Shown here in pieces: positions 3 through 16,080 of a stretch of 32,000 nt of DNA. Source of the stretch: Candidatus Heimdallarchaeota archaeon B3_Heim (GTDB taxonomy: Archaea; Asgardarchaeota; Heimdallarchaeia; Hodarchaeales; Hodarchaeaceae); contig NJBF01000007.1 of NCBI GenBank assembly GCA_003144275.1, positions 9,994-41,993 on the forward strand, given 5' to 3'. Position numbers and translations under genes: made by a program. Within the stretch, counting starts at the first letter, position 1. The number at the start of each line of letters is the position of its first letter. The notes under the pieces are model-generated. The model was not told the DNA's origin and did no database searches. It saw only the letters and a program-made list of their open reading frames with translations.

Positions 3-1655
3 CAAGAACGTCTTATCTGGAATAAATTGGAGATTGGCAAGAATTTACTTGAATTAACTACTTATGAGGGGATTTCCTTCTGGTGGAATATCGACCATCT
101 TTTCTATCACTTCTTATTATCCACCCTAGAGAGTAATGGAAAAGTCCCTAGTGTAACTAGAAGGAATTTCCTTACCGTTAGACTATTTGGAACGAGAATA
201 GGATTATTAATTTTCTTAATACTTGATATCCTTTTATTTTTGTTCGGTAAACTAATCATTTTAATTGCTAAGGTAAGTAAAAACGAAAAAAAATTAGACT
301 ATAGAAAAAAACCTATTTTCCTTGTTATTAGCTATGATGCAGCTTGGGTTGCAACACCTAGTTATTTATCTGGATTAATAAGAAAGTCAGATCATCTTAA
401 AGACTCTGTGATGGAGACACTTCAGCACAAAGCAGATTTTTTGGGAACTTCATCATTTCGATACCGCAAAGCAAGCTTTAAAATTGCACTAGAACGATCC
501 CTTTTCTGGAATCATTCTTATAACTTACTGAACGTATACTGGTCACCAAAGAGCTGGTTAAAACAGGTTTATGCTTTTAACTTCTTTAAAAGAAAATTGA
601 AAATGATAAAAAATGATTCTAAATTTCGTAAACAATGTCAACAAAATAATAACGATTTCTACGACATTCTTATTCAGGAATTTGATTATTATTTTTGTTT
701 CTTATTACCACTTTGCGTCAGCTGGGTAGAGACATTCACATCTCTAATTGACAAAATAAAACCCTCTCTTGCACTTATCTCAAATGAAACTGGACATTCG
801 GAAAAGAGTCTGATTATTGCTTCAAAAAAACATAAGGTTCCTGTATTAGCAATGCAACATGGGGTTATTGACCCCACAAATCGTGGATATATTTTTTCTA
901 AAAAGGATATTAGTAAAAGTGGATCAATTCACTCACCATATAATCCAATTACTGATAGAACCGCAGTATTTGGTACTAAGTACAAGAATTTCATTGATAA
1001 AAACAGTAATTTCCCTGAAGGCAGTGTGGTAGTAACTGGCAACCCAAAATTTGATAAATTATTTCAAATGGTTAACAAATTTAAAAATCGGGGCCATATT
1101 CGACGTTGGTTGAACATTCCAGAGGATAAACCCATTCTGCTCTGGACCACACAAACGCATTGGCTTTCTACCGAAGAAAACCGTAAGAACGTTGATGCAG
1201 TCTATTCTGCTCTGGAAGAATTGAATGATGACATTACACTAATTGTGAAACTTCATCCTAATGAGGACCAAAGAGCTCCTTTTTATCAAGAAGATTCTCG
1301 CATTAAACCTATCTATCTGGGAAAAGAAGTTGATATCCTCCAACTGATTTACGTTTCAAATATTATATTAACGAAACACTCAATGACGGCAACCGAAGCT
1401 GTTGCACTTGACAAACCTGTTATAATTTTAAATCTCAGTGGAAATCCAGATATTATTGACTGCGTTGATGAAGGAGTAGCTGTTGGAGTTTATAAGAAAG
1501 ATGATCTAAAACAAGCTATCCTTTCACTACTAGTTGATGATTCTAGAATCGCTAAAAATCGGTCTCGATATGTGGAAGCTGAATACTATTTAATTGACGG
1601 AAAATCTTCAGAAAGAATGGCCCGTCTGATGGAATCAATGATCAAAAAAAATTAA
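3..1655 (+). CDS. Membrane-anchored GT-B-like transferase (CDP-glycerol glycerophosphotransferase / capsule-synthesis-like); 5' end probably outside the window
   Basis: ORF 27..1655. The frame stays open back to nt 3, so the TTG at 27 may not be the true start. There is an N-terminal hydrophobic segment (LLIFLILDILLFLFGKLIILIA). The C-terminal half shows GNPKFD ... KLHPNE ... TEAVALDKPVI, a pattern I associate with GT-B enzymes of the TagF / 2-epimerase / capsule-synthesis type. Family assignment is from motif memory only. Confidence 0.45.
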   Translation, partial: QERLIWNKLEIGKNLLELTTYEGISFWWNIDHLFYHFLLSTLESNGKVPSVTRRNFLTVRLFGTRIGLLIFLILDILLFLFGKLIILIAKVSKNEKKLDYRKKPIFLVISYDAAWVATPSYLSGLIRKSDHLKDSVMETLQHKADFLGTSSFRYRKASFKIALERSLFWNHSYNLLNVYWSPKSWLKQVYAFNFFKRKLKMIKNDSKFRKQCQQNNNDFYDILIQEFDYYFCFLLPLCVSWVETFTSLIDKIKPSLALISNETGHSEKSLIIASKKHKVPVLAMQHGVIDPTNRGYIFSKKDISKSGSIHSPYNPITDRTAVFGTKYKNFIDKNSNFPEGSVVVTGNPKFDKLFQMVNKFKNRGHIRRWLNIPEDKPILLWTTQTHWLSTEENRKNVDAVYSALEELNDDITLIVKLHPNEDQRAPFYQEDSRIKPIYLGKEVDILQLIYVSNIILTKHSMTATEAVALDKPVIILNLSGNPDIIDCVDEGVAVGVYKKDDLKQAILSLLVDDSRIAKNRSRYVEAEYYLIDGKSSERMARLMESMIKKN

Positions 1656-1670
1656 GAAAAATAGCTGATA

Positions 1671-2861
1671 GTGAATTCAATGGGAAATAATTCAATTATC
1701 TTCTTGGCGACATATGCTTACTTAGCAATTCCTCAGTACCTCTCAATAACTCCTAACCTAACAAATTACACAAAAATATTGTTTAACACAAGAGATCTAC
1801 TCTCTACGAAATACGACAGCAAATTTATTACCCAAGACATTAAAAAGAATTATTTTGATGATTTTTTTGAACTAAAAGATTTTTCTTTCAATGTAAAAGG
1901 TCCATGGAAAAAGTATCAAGCTTTCAGAAGATGGAAACGAGCAATAATCTTATATATGAACCAGATTTTCCCCCAAGTCGTTGTTAGCTGTTCAGATCAG
2001 TCAATGACTGATAAAATTATCAGTTCTTGGTGTAAAAAGAATAAAAAAGCATTCATTGTCTTGCAACCCTCGTTTATTAGTGGGATGCATTATAAAAAAT
2101 ATGGAATCAGTCACAAAATTAGGTATCTCATTTTTAATAAACTTTTAAATCTGCCTAGGTATCGTAAACAGCATTTATTTGGTAATGAAGAACATTGGAC
2201 TCACTTACTTCTTTGGAGTCAGTATTTTATTGAAGATCCTAAAAGACCGAACATGTATTTCGTTGGCAATCCTGCTTTTGATGTGCTTTTTAGTCAATTT
2301 ACTAGCAAACGAACACTGAAAAACAATGTTTTAATATGTACACAAAATATTAAGGCAATGGTGGGAAAAGAAGCGTTTGATCAAGTTATCGATATGTACA
2401 TTCAAGCAATTAATGCAAAACCTGATCTTACATTCTACATCAAAGTCCATCCAAGAGAATCAATTGAGAAGTATGAATTATTATTCCCCAAAGACCATTT
2501 TCCAAATGCTAAAGTGGTTCAAGAGGATAACTTGTATGATCTCTTCAGAATTAGTGATGTTCAGATATCAGTATCTTCTTATACTTCCTTTGAAGCAGTA
2601 GCAACGGGATTACCAATTATTATTGTGAATCCTAATAATATGTTCGATTTTATTGATCATTTTAGGCAAGAAATAGAGATAAAGGTTACAGATCTGGAGA
2701 AAATCGCAAAGGCTATTGATTTAGCTAGGTCTGAACATTATTGGATGGAGTTTGTCAAAAAGAGGGAAAAATATTTTGACTATATGGTCCATTCCACTGA
2801 TGGAAAGAGCGGAAAGCGAGCTGCAGAGAAAATGGAAGAGATTATCAATTTTAGTGGATAA
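1671..2861 (+). CDS. GT-B-like transferase, paralogous in architecture to the upstream ORF (candidate sugar transferase or hydrolysing 2-epimerase-like enzyme)
   Basis: 396-aa ORF with GTG start (an ATG follows 3 codons later). It shares the motif order of the C-terminal half of ORF 27..1655: VGNPAFD ... KVHPRE ... FEAVATGLPIII. It lies in the same operon as the nonulosonic-acid genes. Confidence 0.4.
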   Translation: MNSMGNNSIIFLATYAYLAIPQYLSITPNLTNYTKILFNTRDLLSTKYDSKFITQDIKKNYFDDFFELKDFSFNVKGPWKKYQAFRRWKRAIILYMNQIFPQVVVSCSDQSMTDKIISSWCKKNKKAFIVLQPSFISGMHYKKYGISHKIRYLIFNKLLNLPRYRKQHLFGNEEHWTHLLLWSQYFIEDPKRPNMYFVGNPAFDVLFSQFTSKRTLKNNVLICTQNIKAMVGKEAFDQVIDMYIQAINAKPDLTFYIKVHPRESIEKYELLFPKDHFPNAKVVQEDNLYDLFRISDVQISVSSYTSFEAVATGLPIIIVNPNNMFDFIDHFRQEIEIKVTDLEKIAKAIDLARSEHYWMEFVKKREKYFDYMVHSTDGKSGKRAAEKMEEIINFSG

Positions 2862-4657: not shown

Positions 4658-5485
4658 ATGAGAGATCTGTTTAATTTAGATTCAAAAGTCGCAGTAGTAA
4701 TTGGTGGTAATGGGTATTTAGGAATTGAATTTTGTAAAACTTTATTAGAATATGGAGCAGTGGTCTATTGCTGTGATGCAAGTATTCAAGAATCAGAAGA
4801 AACAAACGCAATTAAGAAGAAATTTCCTGATAAATTTAAGATGATAAAAACTGATGCGACTAATAAAGAAAGTCTTGAAACCCTGAGAAATGATATATTA
4901 GGAACAGAAAAAACGGTTGATATCCTGGTCAACACAGCAACAATGAAAGGTAATGATTTCTACTTACCTTTCGAAGAAGTCTCACTGGAAGGATGGAATA
5001 TTGGTATTTTGGGAAATCTAACCATACCATTTCTAACAATACAAACATTCATTCCTTTGATGAAAACACAGAGAAAAGGCTCTATTATTAACATTTCCTC
5101 GCACTATGGAATAGTTGGAAATGATCAACGGATCTATGTTGGTAGCAATTTACACGAACTCTATGTGAAGGACTCCCCTAACATTGAACAAGTATACTCA
5201 CATGGAGTTTATAATGCTTCAAAAGGTGGGATTATTAACTTCACCCGATATCTAGCCGCTTATTATGGTGAGTACAACATTCGAGTGAATTGTATCTCAC
5301 CAGGAGGAATTCATTATGAGGATGAGAATGAGACTTTTGTACAAAAGTATTCAGAGAAAGTCCCACTTGCAAGAAAAGCCAGGAAAGCCGAAATCAATGG
5401 AGCGCTGATCTTTCTAGCATCTAATGCATCTTCATATGTTACTGGTCATAATCTTGTTGTAGATGGGGGATTTACAATCTGGTGA
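4658..5485 (+). CDS. Short-chain dehydrogenase/reductase (SDR)
   Basis: Glycine-rich VAVVIGGNGYLG, catalytic YNASK (YxxxK), and the C-terminal GHNLVVDGG motif typical of classical SDRs. Confidence 0.8.
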   Translation: MRDLFNLDSKVAVVIGGNGYLGIEFCKTLLEYGAVVYCCDASIQESEETNAIKKKFPDKFKMIKTDATNKESLETLRNDILGTEKTVDILVNTATMKGNDFYLPFEEVSLEGWNIGILGNLTIPFLTIQTFIPLMKTQRKGSIINISSHYGIVGNDQRIYVGSNLHELYVKDSPNIEQVYSHGVYNASKGGIINFTRYLAAYYGEYNIRVNCISPGGIHYEDENETFVQKYSEKVPLARKARKAEINGALIFLASNASSYVTGHNLVVDGGFTIW

Positions 5486-5652
5486 TAATCTTCTTAGCCA
5501 GAAATTACAGAAGTAAAAATGCTGGGCTATATCACATTTCAAACTGAATTAACTATTCAATCTTCTTCTCAAAATCACAACACATCAATTATAATATAGT
5601 TTAGATAATTTGAAATCATTGAATTTACCCTCTGGAACATGGAAGAAAAAAC

Positions 5653-6762
5653 ATGAGATATTGTAAAAAATGCGTAATGCCTGACACAAGGCCTTACATG
5701 AAATTTAATGAAGAAGGGGTTTGTTATCCCTGTATCCATTATGAAAACAGGAAAAATGTTGATTGGGACGCAAGATGGAAAGAGTTAGAAGCTCTTGCTG
5801 ACAAACATCGCGGTCGGAATGGGAACTATTACGATGTTATTATAACTGCCAGTGGTGGTAAAGATAGTCATTACCAAGTAGATGTATTTAAAGAAAAATT
5901 GAACATGAATCCTTTGTTGGTGTCTATTGATAACTTTAGCTGGACCAAAACTGGTCGAGAAAACTACGAGAATTTGGGGGATAGATACGGTGTGGATATT
6001 CACCTGATTACCTTAAATCGTAAGGTTGCCAGAAGAATGCTCAGTAAGGGTCTTGATAAAGGTCTTTATCCAACATGGATATGGGATAGAGCAGTCTATG
6101 CTTATCCCTTACAAATGGCCATTAAATTAAACATTCCCCTAGTTATTTGGGGTGAAAATACAGCCTATGAACGCGGAGGCCCTATACTTGAGGACACTCC
6201 TGATGCAATGGTTCAATTGAAGAATGATGTTGTTAAACCGATTCCATTAGAAGAATGGGTAGATGAGGAAATTACCTTGAAAGATTTAAATCCCATTATC
6301 TATCCATCAATGGAGGAAATTGAAAAAGCGGGAGTTGAAGCTAGATTTTTGAGTTATTATGATCCTTGGAGTGACCATGGACATTACGAATACGCCATCA
6401 AGAACGGTTGGAAGACATTGGAGGAAGAATGGGTACGAGAGGGGCTTCCAGGCTTGCATTACTTACAAGTTGATACCATTGGATATCTTGTCCATAATTG
6501 GGTTAAATTCGTGAAAATGGGTCATTGGGCTTTGACAGATTACTGTAGTTTAGATATTCGTGAAGGAAGAATGACCCGGGAAGAAGCCGTGAAGCTAATC
6601 AATCAGGAAGAGTATAAATTGGACCCAAAAATGCTCAAGGATTTTCTAGATTTTACAGGTGTTTCTGAAGAAAGATTTTGGGCTCTTGTTGATAAATTTG
6701 CCAATAAAGATATTGTTGAGAAGCGCAACGGTATATGGAGATTAAAACAACCTCTGATGTAG
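5653..6762 (+). CDS. N-acetyl sugar amidotransferase (PseA/WbpG-like PP-loop ATPase)
   Basis: N-terminal Cys pairs (CKKC ... CYPC) are followed by the PP-loop SGGKDS. This is the architecture of the LPS/flagellin-glycan amidotransferases that make acetamidino sugars. Confidence 0.8.
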   Translation: MRYCKKCVMPDTRPYMKFNEEGVCYPCIHYENRKNVDWDARWKELEALADKHRGRNGNYYDVIITASGGKDSHYQVDVFKEKLNMNPLLVSIDNFSWTKTGRENYENLGDRYGVDIHLITLNRKVARRMLSKGLDKGLYPTWIWDRAVYAYPLQMAIKLNIPLVIWGENTAYERGGPILEDTPDAMVQLKNDVVKPIPLEEWVDEEITLKDLNPIIYPSMEEIEKAGVEARFLSYYDPWSDHGHYEYAIKNGWKTLEEEWVREGLPGLHYLQVDTIGYLVHNWVKFVKMGHWALTDYCSLDIREGRMTREEAVKLINQEEYKLDPKMLKDFLDFTGVSEERFWALVDKFANKDIVEKRNGIWRLKQPLM

Positions 6763-12417: not shown

Positions 12418-13419
12418 TTAATTATTTCCTTTATGTATTCTCTCATGATTTCCTGTAAGTTCCCGTGTTGTCCATAACAAGAAGAGCAATCCAAGGCCCA
12501 CTCCAAACCATAGAGTTGTGAAACGAATAACTAAGGTCAAAGCAACTGATTTTGTATATTTTACGTTAAGAAGATCGATAACCAGGAATTCTAACCCGCC
12601 TTCCATTAATCCTAACCCGCCTGGTAGGAATGAAATAGCACCTATAATGGAGGAAGTGGCATAAATAAACATAGCCATTTGGAAACTCATTTGTATGCCC
12701 AAGCTTTGCGCCACCAGCATAAAAGCTAAGCATTCACAGGCCCAACCTACCATTCCGAGGAGGAGTGCTCCAGTGAATACTGGTAAGCGAAAGGTGACAA
12801 TGACATCTGCACGAAAATTATCAACATATCCACCTAATTTCCGCCATGGTCCAAAGATAAGAATTCGTGAAAAAAAGTGATAGAGAGGATCGAATAAAAA
12901 TGTGATCACACCAATCATTACCAGAAAAAGAATTATTAGAAGGATAAAAAGATAATCTGAACTGAAACCCATTATAATAATACCAATTATTGATAATAGT
13001 GTGACGGCCAGTAAATCTATCAATCGTTCAGAGAAAGTTGATGCAAGCCCCTTTGAAATATCTATATTACTCCTTTTTTTCAGTAGTAAAGCACGGATTG
13101 CTTCTCCAGCTTTTGCGGGAGTTATTGCCAAAGCTAAACCAGCCATAAAGACTTTGAAGTTATATAGAGGGGGAATTTCTAATTTTAAACTCCTTGTAAA
13201 TAGAACCCATTTTAGAAATCTACATAGATAATTGAGAAAACTTAGGCCAAGTGCAATGAAAACTACTTCAACTGGAATCCCAGCTAAGTAGATAAGAAGT
13301 TGGTTCCGATTACTGATAAATATCAGAACTAAATAAACTCCTGCTCCCAAAATTAACCCAAATACAAAATTACGGAATGTAAAGATCTTACTATAAAAAG
13401 ATTCACTCTTTAATTCCAT
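12418..13419 (-). CDS. Polytopic membrane protein, flippase-like / lysylphosphatidylglycerol-synthase-TM (UPF0104)-like
   Basis: 333 aa with about 8 hydrophobic helices. The common pairing of this family with GT2 enzymes matches the context. Family call is tentative. Confidence 0.5.
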   Translation of the reverse strand: MELKSESFYSKIFTFRNFVFGLILGAGVYLVLIFISNRNQLLIYLAGIPVEVVFIALGLSFLNYLCRFLKWVLFTRSLKLEIPPLYNFKVFMAGLALAITPAKAGEAIRALLLKKRSNIDISKGLASTFSERLIDLLAVTLLSIIGIIIMGFSSDYLFILLIILFLVMIGVITFLFDPLYHFFSRILIFGPWRKLGGYVDNFRADVIVTFRLPVFTGALLLGMVGWACECLAFMLVAQSLGIQMSFQMAMFIYATSSIIGAISFLPGGLGLMEGGLEFLVIDLLNVKYTKSVALTLVIRFTTLWFGVGLGLLFLLWTTRELTGNHERIHKGNN

Positions 13420-13426
13420 AAGCTTC

Positions 13427-13643
13427 CCGTTCTGAAAGACTTACCCAAATCGGACATTTAGGGACAATTAAGATTTTTATGTTAATGATGCTAATTATCA
13501 CCAGTCGGTATTGGTGCTATTCTTCCTGCTTCCTCGACGCGTGCCTGTTGGTACACAGGTCTTACCGCCTCTCCACAGGCATTTAAGGTCTCCGCGGAAC
13601 TCTCGGCGACAGGAATTATTAGGGGTTCCTTCTTTATAAAATC
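13427..13643 (-). ncRNA. Solo (tnpB-less) copy of the TnpB 3'-end / omega-RNA (right-end) module plus 24-nt 3' flank
   Basis: 13516..13615 aligns without gaps to 13722..13821 (the tnpB 3' end) at 86 of 100 identical by hand count. This includes a compensatory stem change (cctgT..Acagg vs cctgC..Gcagg). No RuvC or Zn-finger coding sequence lies upstream of it. The 69-aa ORF 13491..13700 is only the relic TnpB C-terminal frame. Confidence 0.5.
13633..13640 (-). promoter_or_regulatory. TATA-like box (TTTATAAA) upstream of the solo omega-RNA-like copy
   Basis: The palindromic TTTATAAA sits just upstream, on the minus strand, of the point where homology to the tnpB 3' end begins (about 13626-13612), so the implied start site would fall at the 5' edge of the scaffold-homologous region. 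The background is AT-rich, so this is weak. Confidence 0.25.
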
Positions 13644-13649
13644 ATCAAA

Positions 13650-13830
13650 CCGTTCTGAAAGACTTACCCAAATAAGACAGTTAAAAATAATTAGGAACAA
13701 TTATTACAAACCGTCCTTGGAGCTGTTCTTCCTGATTCATCGACGCGAGCCTGCTCAGATGCAGGTTTTACCACCTCTCCACAGGCGTTTAAGGTCTCCG
13801 CGGAACTCTCGGCGACCGGAAATAGTCGGA
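13650..13830 (-). ncRNA. Predicted omega-RNA (reRNA) region overlapping the tnpB 3' end and right end
   Basis: In characterised TnpB systems the guide RNA comes from the tnpB 3' end plus the right end. The conserved block 13722..13821 has a second copy with a compensatory stem substitution. Exact 5' and 3' ends are not determinable here. Confidence 0.5.
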
Positions 13831-14971
13831 ACCGATAGATAACATAATAATTGGCTACATTGCACGCAGCATTCTGATCACGATCTAATACCAACCCACA
13901 TAACGGGCAATGAAAAACCCGATCAGCTAACGTTAGATCCTGCTGGTAATACAGGCAATTAGAGCATAATTTCGAGGAAGGAAACCAGCGATCGATCTCA
14001 ATCAACGTAGAACCATAGAAAGGTGCCTTATATGCGAGGAAACGCTGAAACAGACCATGTGAAAGATCGGCCCAATATTTACTCAGCTTCTTATTTTGCA
14101 TTAATCCTTTGACATATAAATCCTCGGTAACTATCACGCTGTGGTTTTTAGCCAGATAGGTAGAGGTTTGATGCAAAAAATTATGCCGTTGGTTTGTAAT
14201 TCGACGATAGAATTGCGCTAAGCGGAGGGCAGACTTTCGTTTATTATTTGAGCCGTTCTCTTTCCGTGAATGAGCTTTTGATAATCGACACTGTTTCCGA
14301 GCTTGACGGAGGAGGAAATTAGGTCGTGCGATGGGGATTCCAGAAGATAAGGCGGCAAAGACGGATAATCCTTTATCCAACGCAACGAGTGGGCCACCGT
14401 TTGGTTTACGATCCGGTTGTTCCTCTTTCACGGTAAGAGCCACAGACCAGCGATCCGCAGTCCGAGAGATCGTGGCACTCAGTATCCGTGCCGATACAGG
14501 TAAATTTGGCGTTTCTTTTAGCCGTAATTTCCCCAAACGAGGTAATTGGACCTGTTTTACCGCTGGAAAAAGGCGAACCACTCCCGTCAATCGAAAGCTG
14601 TCCTTACACTTGCCTTTTTTCTTGAATCTGGGCAATCCGACATAGCGGATGGTTCGGTTCTTTTTTCTTTGTTGATGATTGGTGAAGAAATTCTGATAGC
14701 CACGATCTAAGTCGCGGAGGGCCTCTTGCGGGACACATTTCGAGACCTCATACATCCAGGGAAAATCAGTGTTTTTCAAGCGATTTAATTCTTTATGTTG
14801 TTTTATAGCATCGGTATAACGAGCTGTACCTGTTTGCGTGCGATAACGTTGTTTTCGACTGGCTAATCCCCAGTTCCAGGTAAATCGTGATATACCTGCA
14901 CATTTGGTCAGTAGCGTCCGTTCCTTGTTATTTACACATAATTCGTACTTATATCCTCGTGTACGGAGCAT
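13691..14971 (-). CDS. tnpB: TnpB RNA-guided endonuclease (IS605 OrfB family), apparently intact
   Basis: 426 aa. RuvC-like motifs are present: VALDKGL (D), VIVTEDL (E) and DRDQNAACN (D). The zinc finger is CSNC...CPLC, and there is an N-terminal OrfB-type HTH region. Confidence 0.9.
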   Translation of the reverse strand: MLRTRGYKYELCVNNKERTLLTKCAGISRFTWNWGLASRKQRYRTQTGTARYTDAIKQHKELNRLKNTDFPWMYEVSKCVPQEALRDLDRGYQNFFTNHQQRKKNRTIRYVGLPRFKKKGKCKDSFRLTGVVRLFPAVKQVQLPRLGKLRLKETPNLPVSARILSATISRTADRWSVALTVKEEQPDRKPNGGPLVALDKGLSVFAALSSGIPIARPNFLLRQARKQCRLSKAHSRKENGSNNKRKSALRLAQFYRRITNQRHNFLHQTSTYLAKNHSVIVTEDLYVKGLMQNKKLSKYWADLSHGLFQRFLAYKAPFYGSTLIEIDRWFPSSKLCSNCLYYQQDLTLADRVFHCPLCGLVLDRDQNAACNVANYYVIYRFRLFPVAESSAETLNACGEVVKPASEQARVDESGRTAPRTVCNNCS

Positions 14972-15039
14972 CCCTGACCATCCTTACTAGCACTCACTAA
15001 CATAACATAGCAATACTGATTGATTACGCGCTTTTCTTC

Positions 15040-15046
15040 TTATAAA
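15040..15046 (-). promoter_or_regulatory. TATA-like box (TTTATAA) inside the IS left end, about 70 nt upstream of the tnpB ATG
   Basis: Minus strand reads ...cgtaggTTTATAAgaagaaaagcgcg... A similar string (TTTATAAAGAAGGAA) precedes the solo copy. Position is plausible for an archaeal promoter. Confidence 0.3.
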
Positions 15047-15068
15047 CCTACGAGGCCACGTGATCTAA

Positions 15069-15562
15069 ATCAAAATTGCTAATATTCCGTTATTTTATTG
15101 TTAAAAGGTTAATTAGGTCATCACTGGAACTATAATCTCATGAGATCTGTTTATTTCTCTATTAATTATATCTTTTAGTCTCTCCTCCCTCTTCCTAAGT
15201 TCCATTGCTTTTTGTTTCCCTTTTCCCCTTGAAATTCACTTTTCCTATTTGTCTATAAATGTCTATATTTGGCTATTATTCAATAGATAGTTTACAACCC
15301 TACATTCCAGATCAAACGGGGTTCCTTTCCCTCATTTTAGCGTTAATAGGTTAACTAGCCCATCGTTTTATCTATAATCCAATGAGACAAATTAAATCCC
15401 CAGTCATTATTATAATTCATGTTCTGTCCCCGTTTCTTTCGTTGTTCTGTATGCTGTCTTAAACTTCCTCTTCGTCCTGTGTGTCCATAAATGTCGATAT
15501 CTATCCATTGATTCGCTAGCTATTATCAACCCTTTGAGTATCACTTTTAAAATGCAGATCAA
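15069..15562. repeat. Two degenerate tandem repeat units of about 240 bp (A 15075..15310, B 15317..15557) bounded by TTGAT motifs
   Basis: Best-aligning stretches are 15086..15146 vs 15326..15386 and 15243..15290 vs 15474..15530. The minus-strand boundaries read TTGATCTG (15555..15562), TTTGATCTG (15308..15316) and TTTGAT (15069..15074), the last abutting the IS left end. Confidence 0.6.
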
Positions 15563-15699: not shown

Positions 15700-16080
15700 T
15701 TGTTGCGAGAAAAAGAATGTCTTGAATGTAAACAACATTTTCCTGTACCGTCTATGATTAGAGGTGTAAAGACTAACCAATATGGGGATAAGGAAAAATA
15801 TGGTTATCTCTGCGGAAGATGTTATCGGAATAGCGTGGAAAAACGATCAAAAATCCTCCTCTTTTTCACTGTGGGTTCTGGGGTTATAGGATTTATTTTC
15901 TTTAGTCTAATCTTGTATATGTATCTATTTGTCAAAACTCTTTTAGCTGATCAGTTCATATCTACAGTAGAAACTTTTTCATCCTTGGGTATTATTTTCA
16001 TTTTATTTTCTTTGGTCTTGTTTTACATGCGTCACAAAGAGTTGTCTAAAATGCGGAAGCAAATTAAAACTCTTCGTTAG
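15700..16080 (+). CDS. Small zinc-ribbon membrane protein (hypothetical)
   Basis: N-terminal CLEC ... CGRC Cys pairs are followed by two long hydrophobic helices. TTG start. No family recognised. Confidence 0.4.
   Translation: MLREKECLECKQHFPVPSMIRGVKTNQYGDKEKYGYLCGRCYRNSVEKRSKILLFFTVGSGVIGFIFFSLILYMYLFVKTLLADQFISTVETFSSLGIIFILFSLVLFYMRHKELSKMRKQIKTLR

Follow-up and report, generated by a model that had tools for sequence, protein, structure and literature searches.

Gene content and organization of the locus

The window analysed here, a stretch of 32,000 nucleotides from a contig of Candidatus Heimdallarchaeota archaeon B3_Heim, contains two related transposable elements next to a host gene for a flippase-like protein. 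Read along the minus strand, the left half of a tnpB-less mini-element (15529..15298) comes first, followed by a full insertion sequence (IS) encoding TnpB only (15297..13650), then by the other half, the right one, of that mini-element (13649..13427), and last by the flippase-like gene. The features, all located on the minus strand, are given below with the evidence for each; homologous loci from other genomes and metagenomes are numbered L001 onwards.

12418..13419, minus strand: host gene, LPG_synthase_TM / flippase-like (Pfam; 100% identity to CEE45_04060)
13407..13426, minus strand: predicted guide of the mini-element omega-RNA, GAAGCTTATGGAATTAAAGA (uninterrupted L099 locus)
13427..13450, minus strand: 24-mer copy 2, right-end terminus of the mini-element (exact match, right-end profile)
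13427..13649, minus strand: right part of the mini-element (colinear gap-free alignment with full-length left ends and L097)
13630..13649, minus strand: predicted guide of the full IS omega-RNA, TTTGATGATTTTATAAAGAA (TnpB biology; boundary from right-end flank comparisons)
13650..13673, minus strand: 24-mer copy 1, right-end terminus of the full IS (comparison of relatives, covariation)
13650..13817, minus strand: omega-RNA scaffold 1 (covariation on 23 sequences; minimum free energy (MFE) fold with matching helices)
13650..15297, minus strand: full tnpB-only IS, ~1,648 bp (blastn to L001-L004)
13691..14971, minus strand: tnpB CDS, 426 aa (Pfam, NCBIfam, translation)
14972..15297, minus strand: left end of the full IS (alignments and repeat family D3)
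15298..15529, minus strand: left part of the mini-element, LE2 (blastn and nhmmer)

The full IS runs from TTGTAAAC... to ...CAGAACGG, with a target GGG on its left (15298-15300); its left junction reads ...GTAGGG/TTGTAAAC, the crossover base inside the GGG being ambiguous by sequence. By blastn, L001-L004 cover the window from ~15300 to 13650 at 80-88% identity, and alignments of the upstream region with related elements are conserved throughout to ~15300. Because homology with L001-L004 reaches this far, the TTTGAT motif at ~15069-15074, which the sequence-only reading had taken as the left border of the full element, lies about 225 nt inside its left end. The same left end displays three ATAGMCA direct repeats in a 10-nt phase (~15277-15243) and a TATA box, TTTATAA (15040-15046), that is invariant in every left end.

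The TnpB protein comprises the Pfam domains HTH_OrfB_IS605, OrfB_IS605 and Cas12f1-like_TNB, and scores 247 bits against the NCBIfam guided_TnpB model (cutoff 100). Its translation shows intact RuvC D/E/D motifs (VALDKG, VIVTEDL and LDRDQNAA) and an intact CxxC..CxxC zinc finger. The nearest TnpB proteins, with up to 88% identity, are encoded by Hodarchaeales/Heimdallarchaeota metagenome-assembled genomes (MAGs). A partial TnpB from B3_Heim itself, P0043, encoded on a contig of 57.6 kb, matches the window TnpB with 88% identity over three quarters of the query, so that the B3_Heim genome holds at least one further copy of the IS.

By profile search, the window has two left ends and two right ends and no more. 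The second left end, LE2, runs from TTGATAAT... to ...GGAATGTAGGG and has its own target GGG (15530-15532). It was detected by blastn (15533-15475 matching 15301-15243, and 15387-15327 matching 15145-15085, each with 75% identity) and by the nhmmer left-end profile (15533-15306, E=3.9e-49), while the solo right end matches the right-end profile at 13623-13427 (E=3e-53). Joining 15529..15298 to 13649..13427 rebuilds a tnpB-less element of 455 nt, which is colinear with full-length left ends through the invariant TATA box and then jumps to the first scaffold helix. Its right part holds the remainder of the left end, the deletion junction (~13621-13611), scaffold 2 (13611-13427) and the right-end terminus. 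Both ends and the scaffold are thus retained, there is no protein gene, and, by analogy with L097, only tnpB residues ~383-417 are left; a second omega-RNA/right-end module that lacks a nuclease gene, as previously proposed, is supported.

The TATA-like TTTATAAA (13633-13640) and the minus-strand TTTGAT (13644-13649) reported for the solo copy are both present. The former corresponds, by homology, to the TTTATAA that stands invariant in every left end, in the promoter region of tnpB; the latter is ordinary interior of the mini-element left end, since the rebuilt mini-element aligns without gaps through the join. In the comparison with L097, an uninterrupted 469-nt mini-element from a metagenome having an equal architecture and promoter-to-scaffold junction, GGAATGTAGGG/TTTGATGATTTTATAAAG stands against GGAATATGGGGTCTGATAATTTTATAAAG with no gap at the join, the overall identity being 74.5%. 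The two elements have unrelated flanks and a common deletion junction, TTTTATAAAG..CCTAAT..TTCCTGTCGCC, which is known from these two copies (window and L097).

The flippase-like protein matches CEE45_04060 of Candidatus Heimdallarchaeota archaeon B3_Heim at 100% identity, and the ATG of its gene is located 7 nt after the right end of the mini-element. About 2.1 kb of transposon DNA separates the gene from its native upstream region, and outward transcription from the elements may now be needed for its expression. A pair of adjoining 20-nt near-repeats, CCAGGAATTCTAACCCGCCT and CCATTAATCCTAACCCGCCT, occurs within the gene (12582-12622). On the other side of the elements, an ORF of 126 aa without Pfam match (15700-16080, plus strand) lies between the mini-element and an NTP-transferase gene; the L099 locus has a called gene of 93 aa that is placed and oriented in the equivalent way with respect to its neighbours.

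The omega-RNA scaffold and its terminal 24-mer

The two right-end/omega-RNA modules share their orientation and are 38 nt apart. Scaffold 1 overlaps the final ~42 codons of tnpB and extends to the right-end terminus. The hand alignments of the sequence-only reading were reproduced: 13516-13615 and 13722-13821 are identical at 86 of 100 positions without gaps, the 24-mers at 13427-13450 and 13650-13673 match exactly, and the two stems, cctgT..Acagg (13544-13559) and cctgC..Gcagg (13750-13765), were confirmed. Its statement that identity ends at the edges of the 24-mer holds for the exact run but not for the similarity, which continues at 83% over 47 nt (13427-13473 versus 13650-13696). No further copy of the 24-mer was found in the window even at 3 mismatches (0 expected by chance); the 24-mer and a 29-nt scaffold core occur there twice each, with zero occurrences expected.

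Whether this 24-mer belongs to the element or to its flank can be read from related loci. Among species-representative genomes, a scan turned up 73 distant loci (~45-50% identical) and seven close ones, L001-L007 (77-88%). The 24-mer is found just downstream of tnpB in all of L001-L007, with 0-2 mismatches in six of them and five in L007; these loci, from different Asgard MAGs, end in ...CAGAACGG, and together with the two window copies they show nine distinct flanks. An exact search of metagenome contigs with the 22 nt at the end of the 24-mer retrieved 18 loci, again with flanks that all differ; as these were chosen by the 22-mer, variation within it was judged on L001-L007 and on bacterial relatives. 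Viral contigs gave no match to the 22-mer. In the 7 Asgard and 18 metagenome loci alike, conservation stops at ...TTGGGTAAGTCTTTCAGAACGG and a different flank follows each time. Ten bacterial relatives end in ...GGGTAAGTTnnnnnGAACGG, their terminus being ATTTGGGTAAGTTCTGTGGAACGG or like variants, followed by unrelated DNA. The terminus ...GTCTATCAGAACAG in L003 (6299-6322) reads AG where the others have the GG core and is mismatched at one helix position; it may represent a decaying, immobile copy.

The terminus is also part of a conserved RNA structure. An alignment of 23 sequences (A2) supports six helices, which are paired in 88.5% of cases, compared with 32-45% when the partners are slid, and 11 pairs change on both sides. 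The 24-mer consists of the 3' arms of two of these helices followed by AGAAC and the GG core. In A2 coordinates, helix 100-105/187-192 pairs TCTTTC with GGAAGA (98.6% paired), and helix 109-116/177-183 pairs TTTGGGT with GC.CCAAN (95% paired), its pair 116-177 occurring as five types (G-U, U-G, A-U, U-A and C-G). These two helices surround a variable, poorly alignable hairpin. Folded separately by MFE, both window copies and nine of the ten bacterial relatives have the matching architecture, which is kept despite sequence change (for instance, GUUCUGUG or GUUUUUUG instead of GUCUUUCA). That the 24-mer is identical in both window copies while the enclosed hairpin drifts is explained by its being the paired terminus of the scaffold and ending in the GG crossover dinucleotide. 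The mini-element of the window has a U-C mismatch at the first pair of helix 1.

The stem with the double substitution noticed at the outset belongs to this real covariation, and conservation at the RNA level is genuine. It corresponds to a local hairpin with moderate support (columns 67-72/77-82), in which pair 71-78 varies among the 23 sequences (U-A in 9, C-G in 6, U-G in 2, unpaired in 6) and pair 70-79 flips to A-U in L007. The enclosing helix 55-60/85-90 covaries as well (pair 58-87 as G-C, A-U, U-A and G-U). RNAalifold, run on 9 sequences, proposed as an alternative to the local hairpin a pairing of GCCTGT (46-51) with GCAGGC (78-83); both are ~84% paired, and the local hairpin with helix 55-60/85-90 was preferred because only these show two-sided changes. 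The folding energies of the window copies (z = -1.9 and -0.5) are weak evidence, and no Rfam family matched at gathering thresholds.

We interpret the 24-mer not as a shared guide but as the conserved sequence in which both the element and its omega-RNA scaffold end on the 3' side. The proposal that it was flank, and thus guide, is contradicted by all other copies, which end with the 24-mer beside unrelated DNA, an outcome that the sequence-only reading had itself named as disproof; the first alternative listed by the sequence-only reading, a true terminus common to two related elements, was correct. TnpB systems take as guide the DNA that adjoins the right end on its 3' side. By analogy, each module should yield its own omega-RNA, with the DNA 3' of ...AACGG as predicted guide: TTTGATGATTTTATAAAG... 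in the full IS and GAAGCTTATGGAATTAAAG... in the mini-element. That the flanks after ...AACGG differ throughout the related loci is consistent with this. The former (13630..13649) is interior DNA of the interrupted mini-element; the latter (13407..13426) is native host DNA over the start codon of the flippase-like gene, where L099 reads GAATTCAATGGCATTATCC.

A nested insertion and the alternatives to it

An orthologous locus from another MAG (L099) has the gene order of the window, with a 643-nt spacer that shows no left-end or right-end homology, and the window minus both elements aligns to it end to end. Removal of the full IS gives the predicted join ...GGAATGTAGGG + TTTGATGATTTT, and removal of the mini-element the predicted join ...ACTCAAAGGG + GAAGCTTATGG. 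We favour, with a probability of about 0.9, the reading that the full tnpB-only IS inserted into the tnpB-less mini-element and split it, the 24-mer being a conserved terminus and not a guide. The full IS landed at a GGG within the left end of the mini-element, 8 nt upstream of the TATA box of the latter, and two right-end/omega-RNA modules stand in tandem because the insertion took place inside that left end. Nested insertions are common among IS elements and MITEs, and the tandem at this locus is best described as an ordinary case of them: one element lies within another, and the outer one is rebuilt exactly by excising the inner one. The sole oddity relative to other nested insertions is that the predicted guide of the inner element now matches the family of the outer element.

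A different order of events is very unlikely, though it fares best among the alternatives. In that scenario the older element was still a full tnpB IS when it was hit, its tnpB was deleted later in place, and the mini-element was never mobile. The insertion site (13649/15298) does not coincide with the deletion junction (~13621-13611), so that the sequence alone sets no order between the two events, and several distinct deletion derivatives in the family (L083, L084 and L085) are in keeping with such a course. Against it stands L097, which has the identical junction at another genomic site, is ~25% diverged and is uninterrupted. Because the junction recurs elsewhere, the deletion predates the split between the L097 and window copies, and the deleted form transposed.

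Still less credit can be given to a local duplication of the right end, whether through replication slippage, gene conversion or aberrant homing repair, with later divergence of the copies. The adjacency and shared orientation of the copies would fit such an event, which nevertheless does not predict the matching, diverged left end found across the full IS. The solo right end is nearer to L097 (86%) than to its neighbour (81%); a hairpin insertion of 17 nt and the promoter-to-scaffold junction are likewise common to it and L097. With the solo right end nearest to L097, and the left ends of the window just 58% identical to each other, a local duplication is effectively ruled out, and the tandem, once thought to be a duplication or proto-array, is accounted for by nested insertion with a second left end upstream.

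The idea of two diverged scaffolds carrying an identical 24-nt guide, as an intermediate between omega-RNA and repeat-spacer arrays, is refuted: the modules are indeed in tandem, in shared orientation, 38 nt apart and with identical 24-mers, but the 24-mer, or a variant with 1-2 mismatches, ends related elements elsewhere where a guide would vary by site, it is base-paired with the upstream scaffold through covarying pairs, and the nested insertion, with its second left end upstream, explains the tandem. A CRISPR-like array would consist of duplicated or acquired units with variable guides; the units here are two elements and the 24-mer is scaffold. A candidate for a second natural tandem, in L006 (6080-6540), was rejected as an assembly or scaffolding artefact, since the duplicated stretches (tnpB 3' end and scaffold) show 100% identity and are separated by an N run.

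The mini-element was mobilised, as its deleted form occurs at unrelated sites (window and L097). The internal deletion of ~1.2 kb brings the first scaffold helix close to the TATA box (13640-13633): the conserved pairing of helix 1 begins at 13610, ~26 nt downstream of the centre of the box. Judged from this spacing, transcripts from the tnpB promoter may now begin at the scaffold, and the TATA box kept from tnpB would drive the omega-RNA of the mini-element. Acting in trans with a TnpB that is compatible with it, this RNA would direct the cutting of empty sites and so lead to retention of the mini-element, which, on established TnpB biology, would need both TnpB and TnpA in trans.

Other mini-elements with differing junctions were found in L083 (~505 nt, 1529-2033, minus strand), L084 (~300 nt, 5476-5776) and L085 (~220 nt, 660-879), along with right-end remnants in L092 (2133-2302), L086 (9594-9675) and L081 (1192-1259); tnpB is located upstream in 10 of the 18 metagenome loci. 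Some of the tnpB-less derivatives have the whole scaffold, others just the final 60-90 nt of the right end. The presence of these minis and remnants suggests that internal deletion of tnpB with retention of the ends is frequent in the family.

Affiliation with the IS607 family and significance

About 30 of the distant bacterial relatives possess an ORF of ~190 aa directly upstream of tnpB and overlapping its start, which encodes an IS607-family serine transposase (NF033518, 214 and 203 bits versus a cutoff of 110). These tnpA-bearing loci begin with GGGTTCTCAAC... and end with ...GGGTAAGTT.....GAACGG, and these bacterial ends (on the right, ...GGGTAAG...GAACGG) are homologous to those of the Asgard elements. 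Among 15 elements, 14 have (R)GGG at the left-end junction, with a TTGATAAC-like sequence after it, and the right end reads ...AACGG. GG is thus found at both junctions without target-site duplication, the rebuilt mini-element being gap-free against L097. Both left ends in the window carry three ATAGMCA/ATNGAYA motifs spaced by 10 nt (15243-15277 and 15475-15509), and a single inverted GACATTT-like motif is situated ~25 nt from each right end; these motifs are candidate transposase-binding sites.

A tblastn search of the window and of the Asgard loci retrieved gave no serine TnpA, so that the window and Asgard elements are non-autonomous; judged by their ends, both window elements are IS607-family derivatives. 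A serine-recombinase TnpA encoded elsewhere would move both through GG-to-GG exchange without target duplication. The window TnpB itself is assigned to neither subtype by NCBIfam, its scores against the IS607_TnpB and IS200_TnpB models each falling short of the cutoff.

ISDra2/IS605-type elements have a TTGAT target-adjacent motif (TAM) abutting the left end and a Y1 TnpA. They resemble the window element in encoding TnpB together with an omega-RNA from the tnpB 3' end and right end, with a guide from the 3' flank (in the window, a predicted one). They differ in that the TTTGAT motifs of the window are internal to the left ends and do not adjoin the transposon, and in that the TnpA of the relatives is of the serine type; no Y1 TnpA was seen, the relatives carrying serine TnpA. 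An IS605-type reading with a TTGAT TAM and hairpin ends was rejected on these two grounds, and TTTGAT, formerly suggested as target-adjacent motif, gives way to (R)GGG with a GG core as the junction motif.

IS607 elements have GG at both termini, a (G)GG target, no target duplication and subterminal direct repeats (PMC6188088), and in an IS607 IStron TGGG is both the target and the TnpB TAM (10.1101/2023.11.20.567912). The window element agrees with IS607, IS1535 and CboIStron in its GG junctions without target duplication, its (R)GGG target similar to (G)GG/TGGG, the phased subterminal direct repeats in its left end, and an omega-RNA that overlaps tnpB at the right end; its ends are, moreover, homologous to those of tnpA-carrying relatives. 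In contrast to these three, the window element, like the Asgard relatives fetched, is without tnpA; it has no group I intron, and its left end is unusually long (~326 nt) and carries an archaeal TATA promoter.

Standalone mobilised omega-RNAs of OMEGA/TnpB transposons are known from Altae-Tran et al. 2021, according to the summary of that work in PMC10691335, and PATE-like elements encoding omega-RNA from Meers et al. 2023 (PMC10055086). The mini-element of the window, which likewise has both ends, a whole scaffold and no protein gene and occurs at unrelated sites, joins these already described elements and does not constitute a new type of system. It differs from them in having IS607-type ends (serine recombinase, GG core) instead of IS200/IS605 hairpin ends, in its Asgard archaeal host, in the direct fusion of the tnpB TATA box to the scaffold start by deletion, and in being interrupted by a full-length relative.

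A doubtful but conceivable extension is that the nesting is functional, the TnpB of the full IS cutting all uninterrupted mini-elements of the genome and the IS homing into them, so that a multi-copy parasite would serve as landing pad. The predicted guide of the full IS, beside a GGG TAM, matches DNA from inside the mini-elements of this family. If transcription continued past tnpB, a single RNA would comprise scaffold 1, the 38-nt stretch in which the first predicted guide lies, and scaffold 2 with a further guide; and nested insertion would be a natural route to tandem scaffold-guide units.

The main value of the analysis is corrective: a seeming shared guide or proto-CRISPR array is a conserved transposon and scaffold terminus doubled by nesting. 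The true ends of an abundant TnpB element of Hodarchaeales/Heimdallarchaeota are now set, with an (R)GGG target and the terminus ...CAGAACGG, end homology ties this element to the IS607 family, and a covariation-supported model of its omega-RNA scaffold is at hand. Asgard genomes carry omega-RNA-only mini-elements in which the tnpB TATA box is located ~26 nt from the scaffold start. These results are useful for predicting the TAMs and guides of Asgard TnpBs, and for the study of guide-RNA-only parasites that exploit TnpB in trans.
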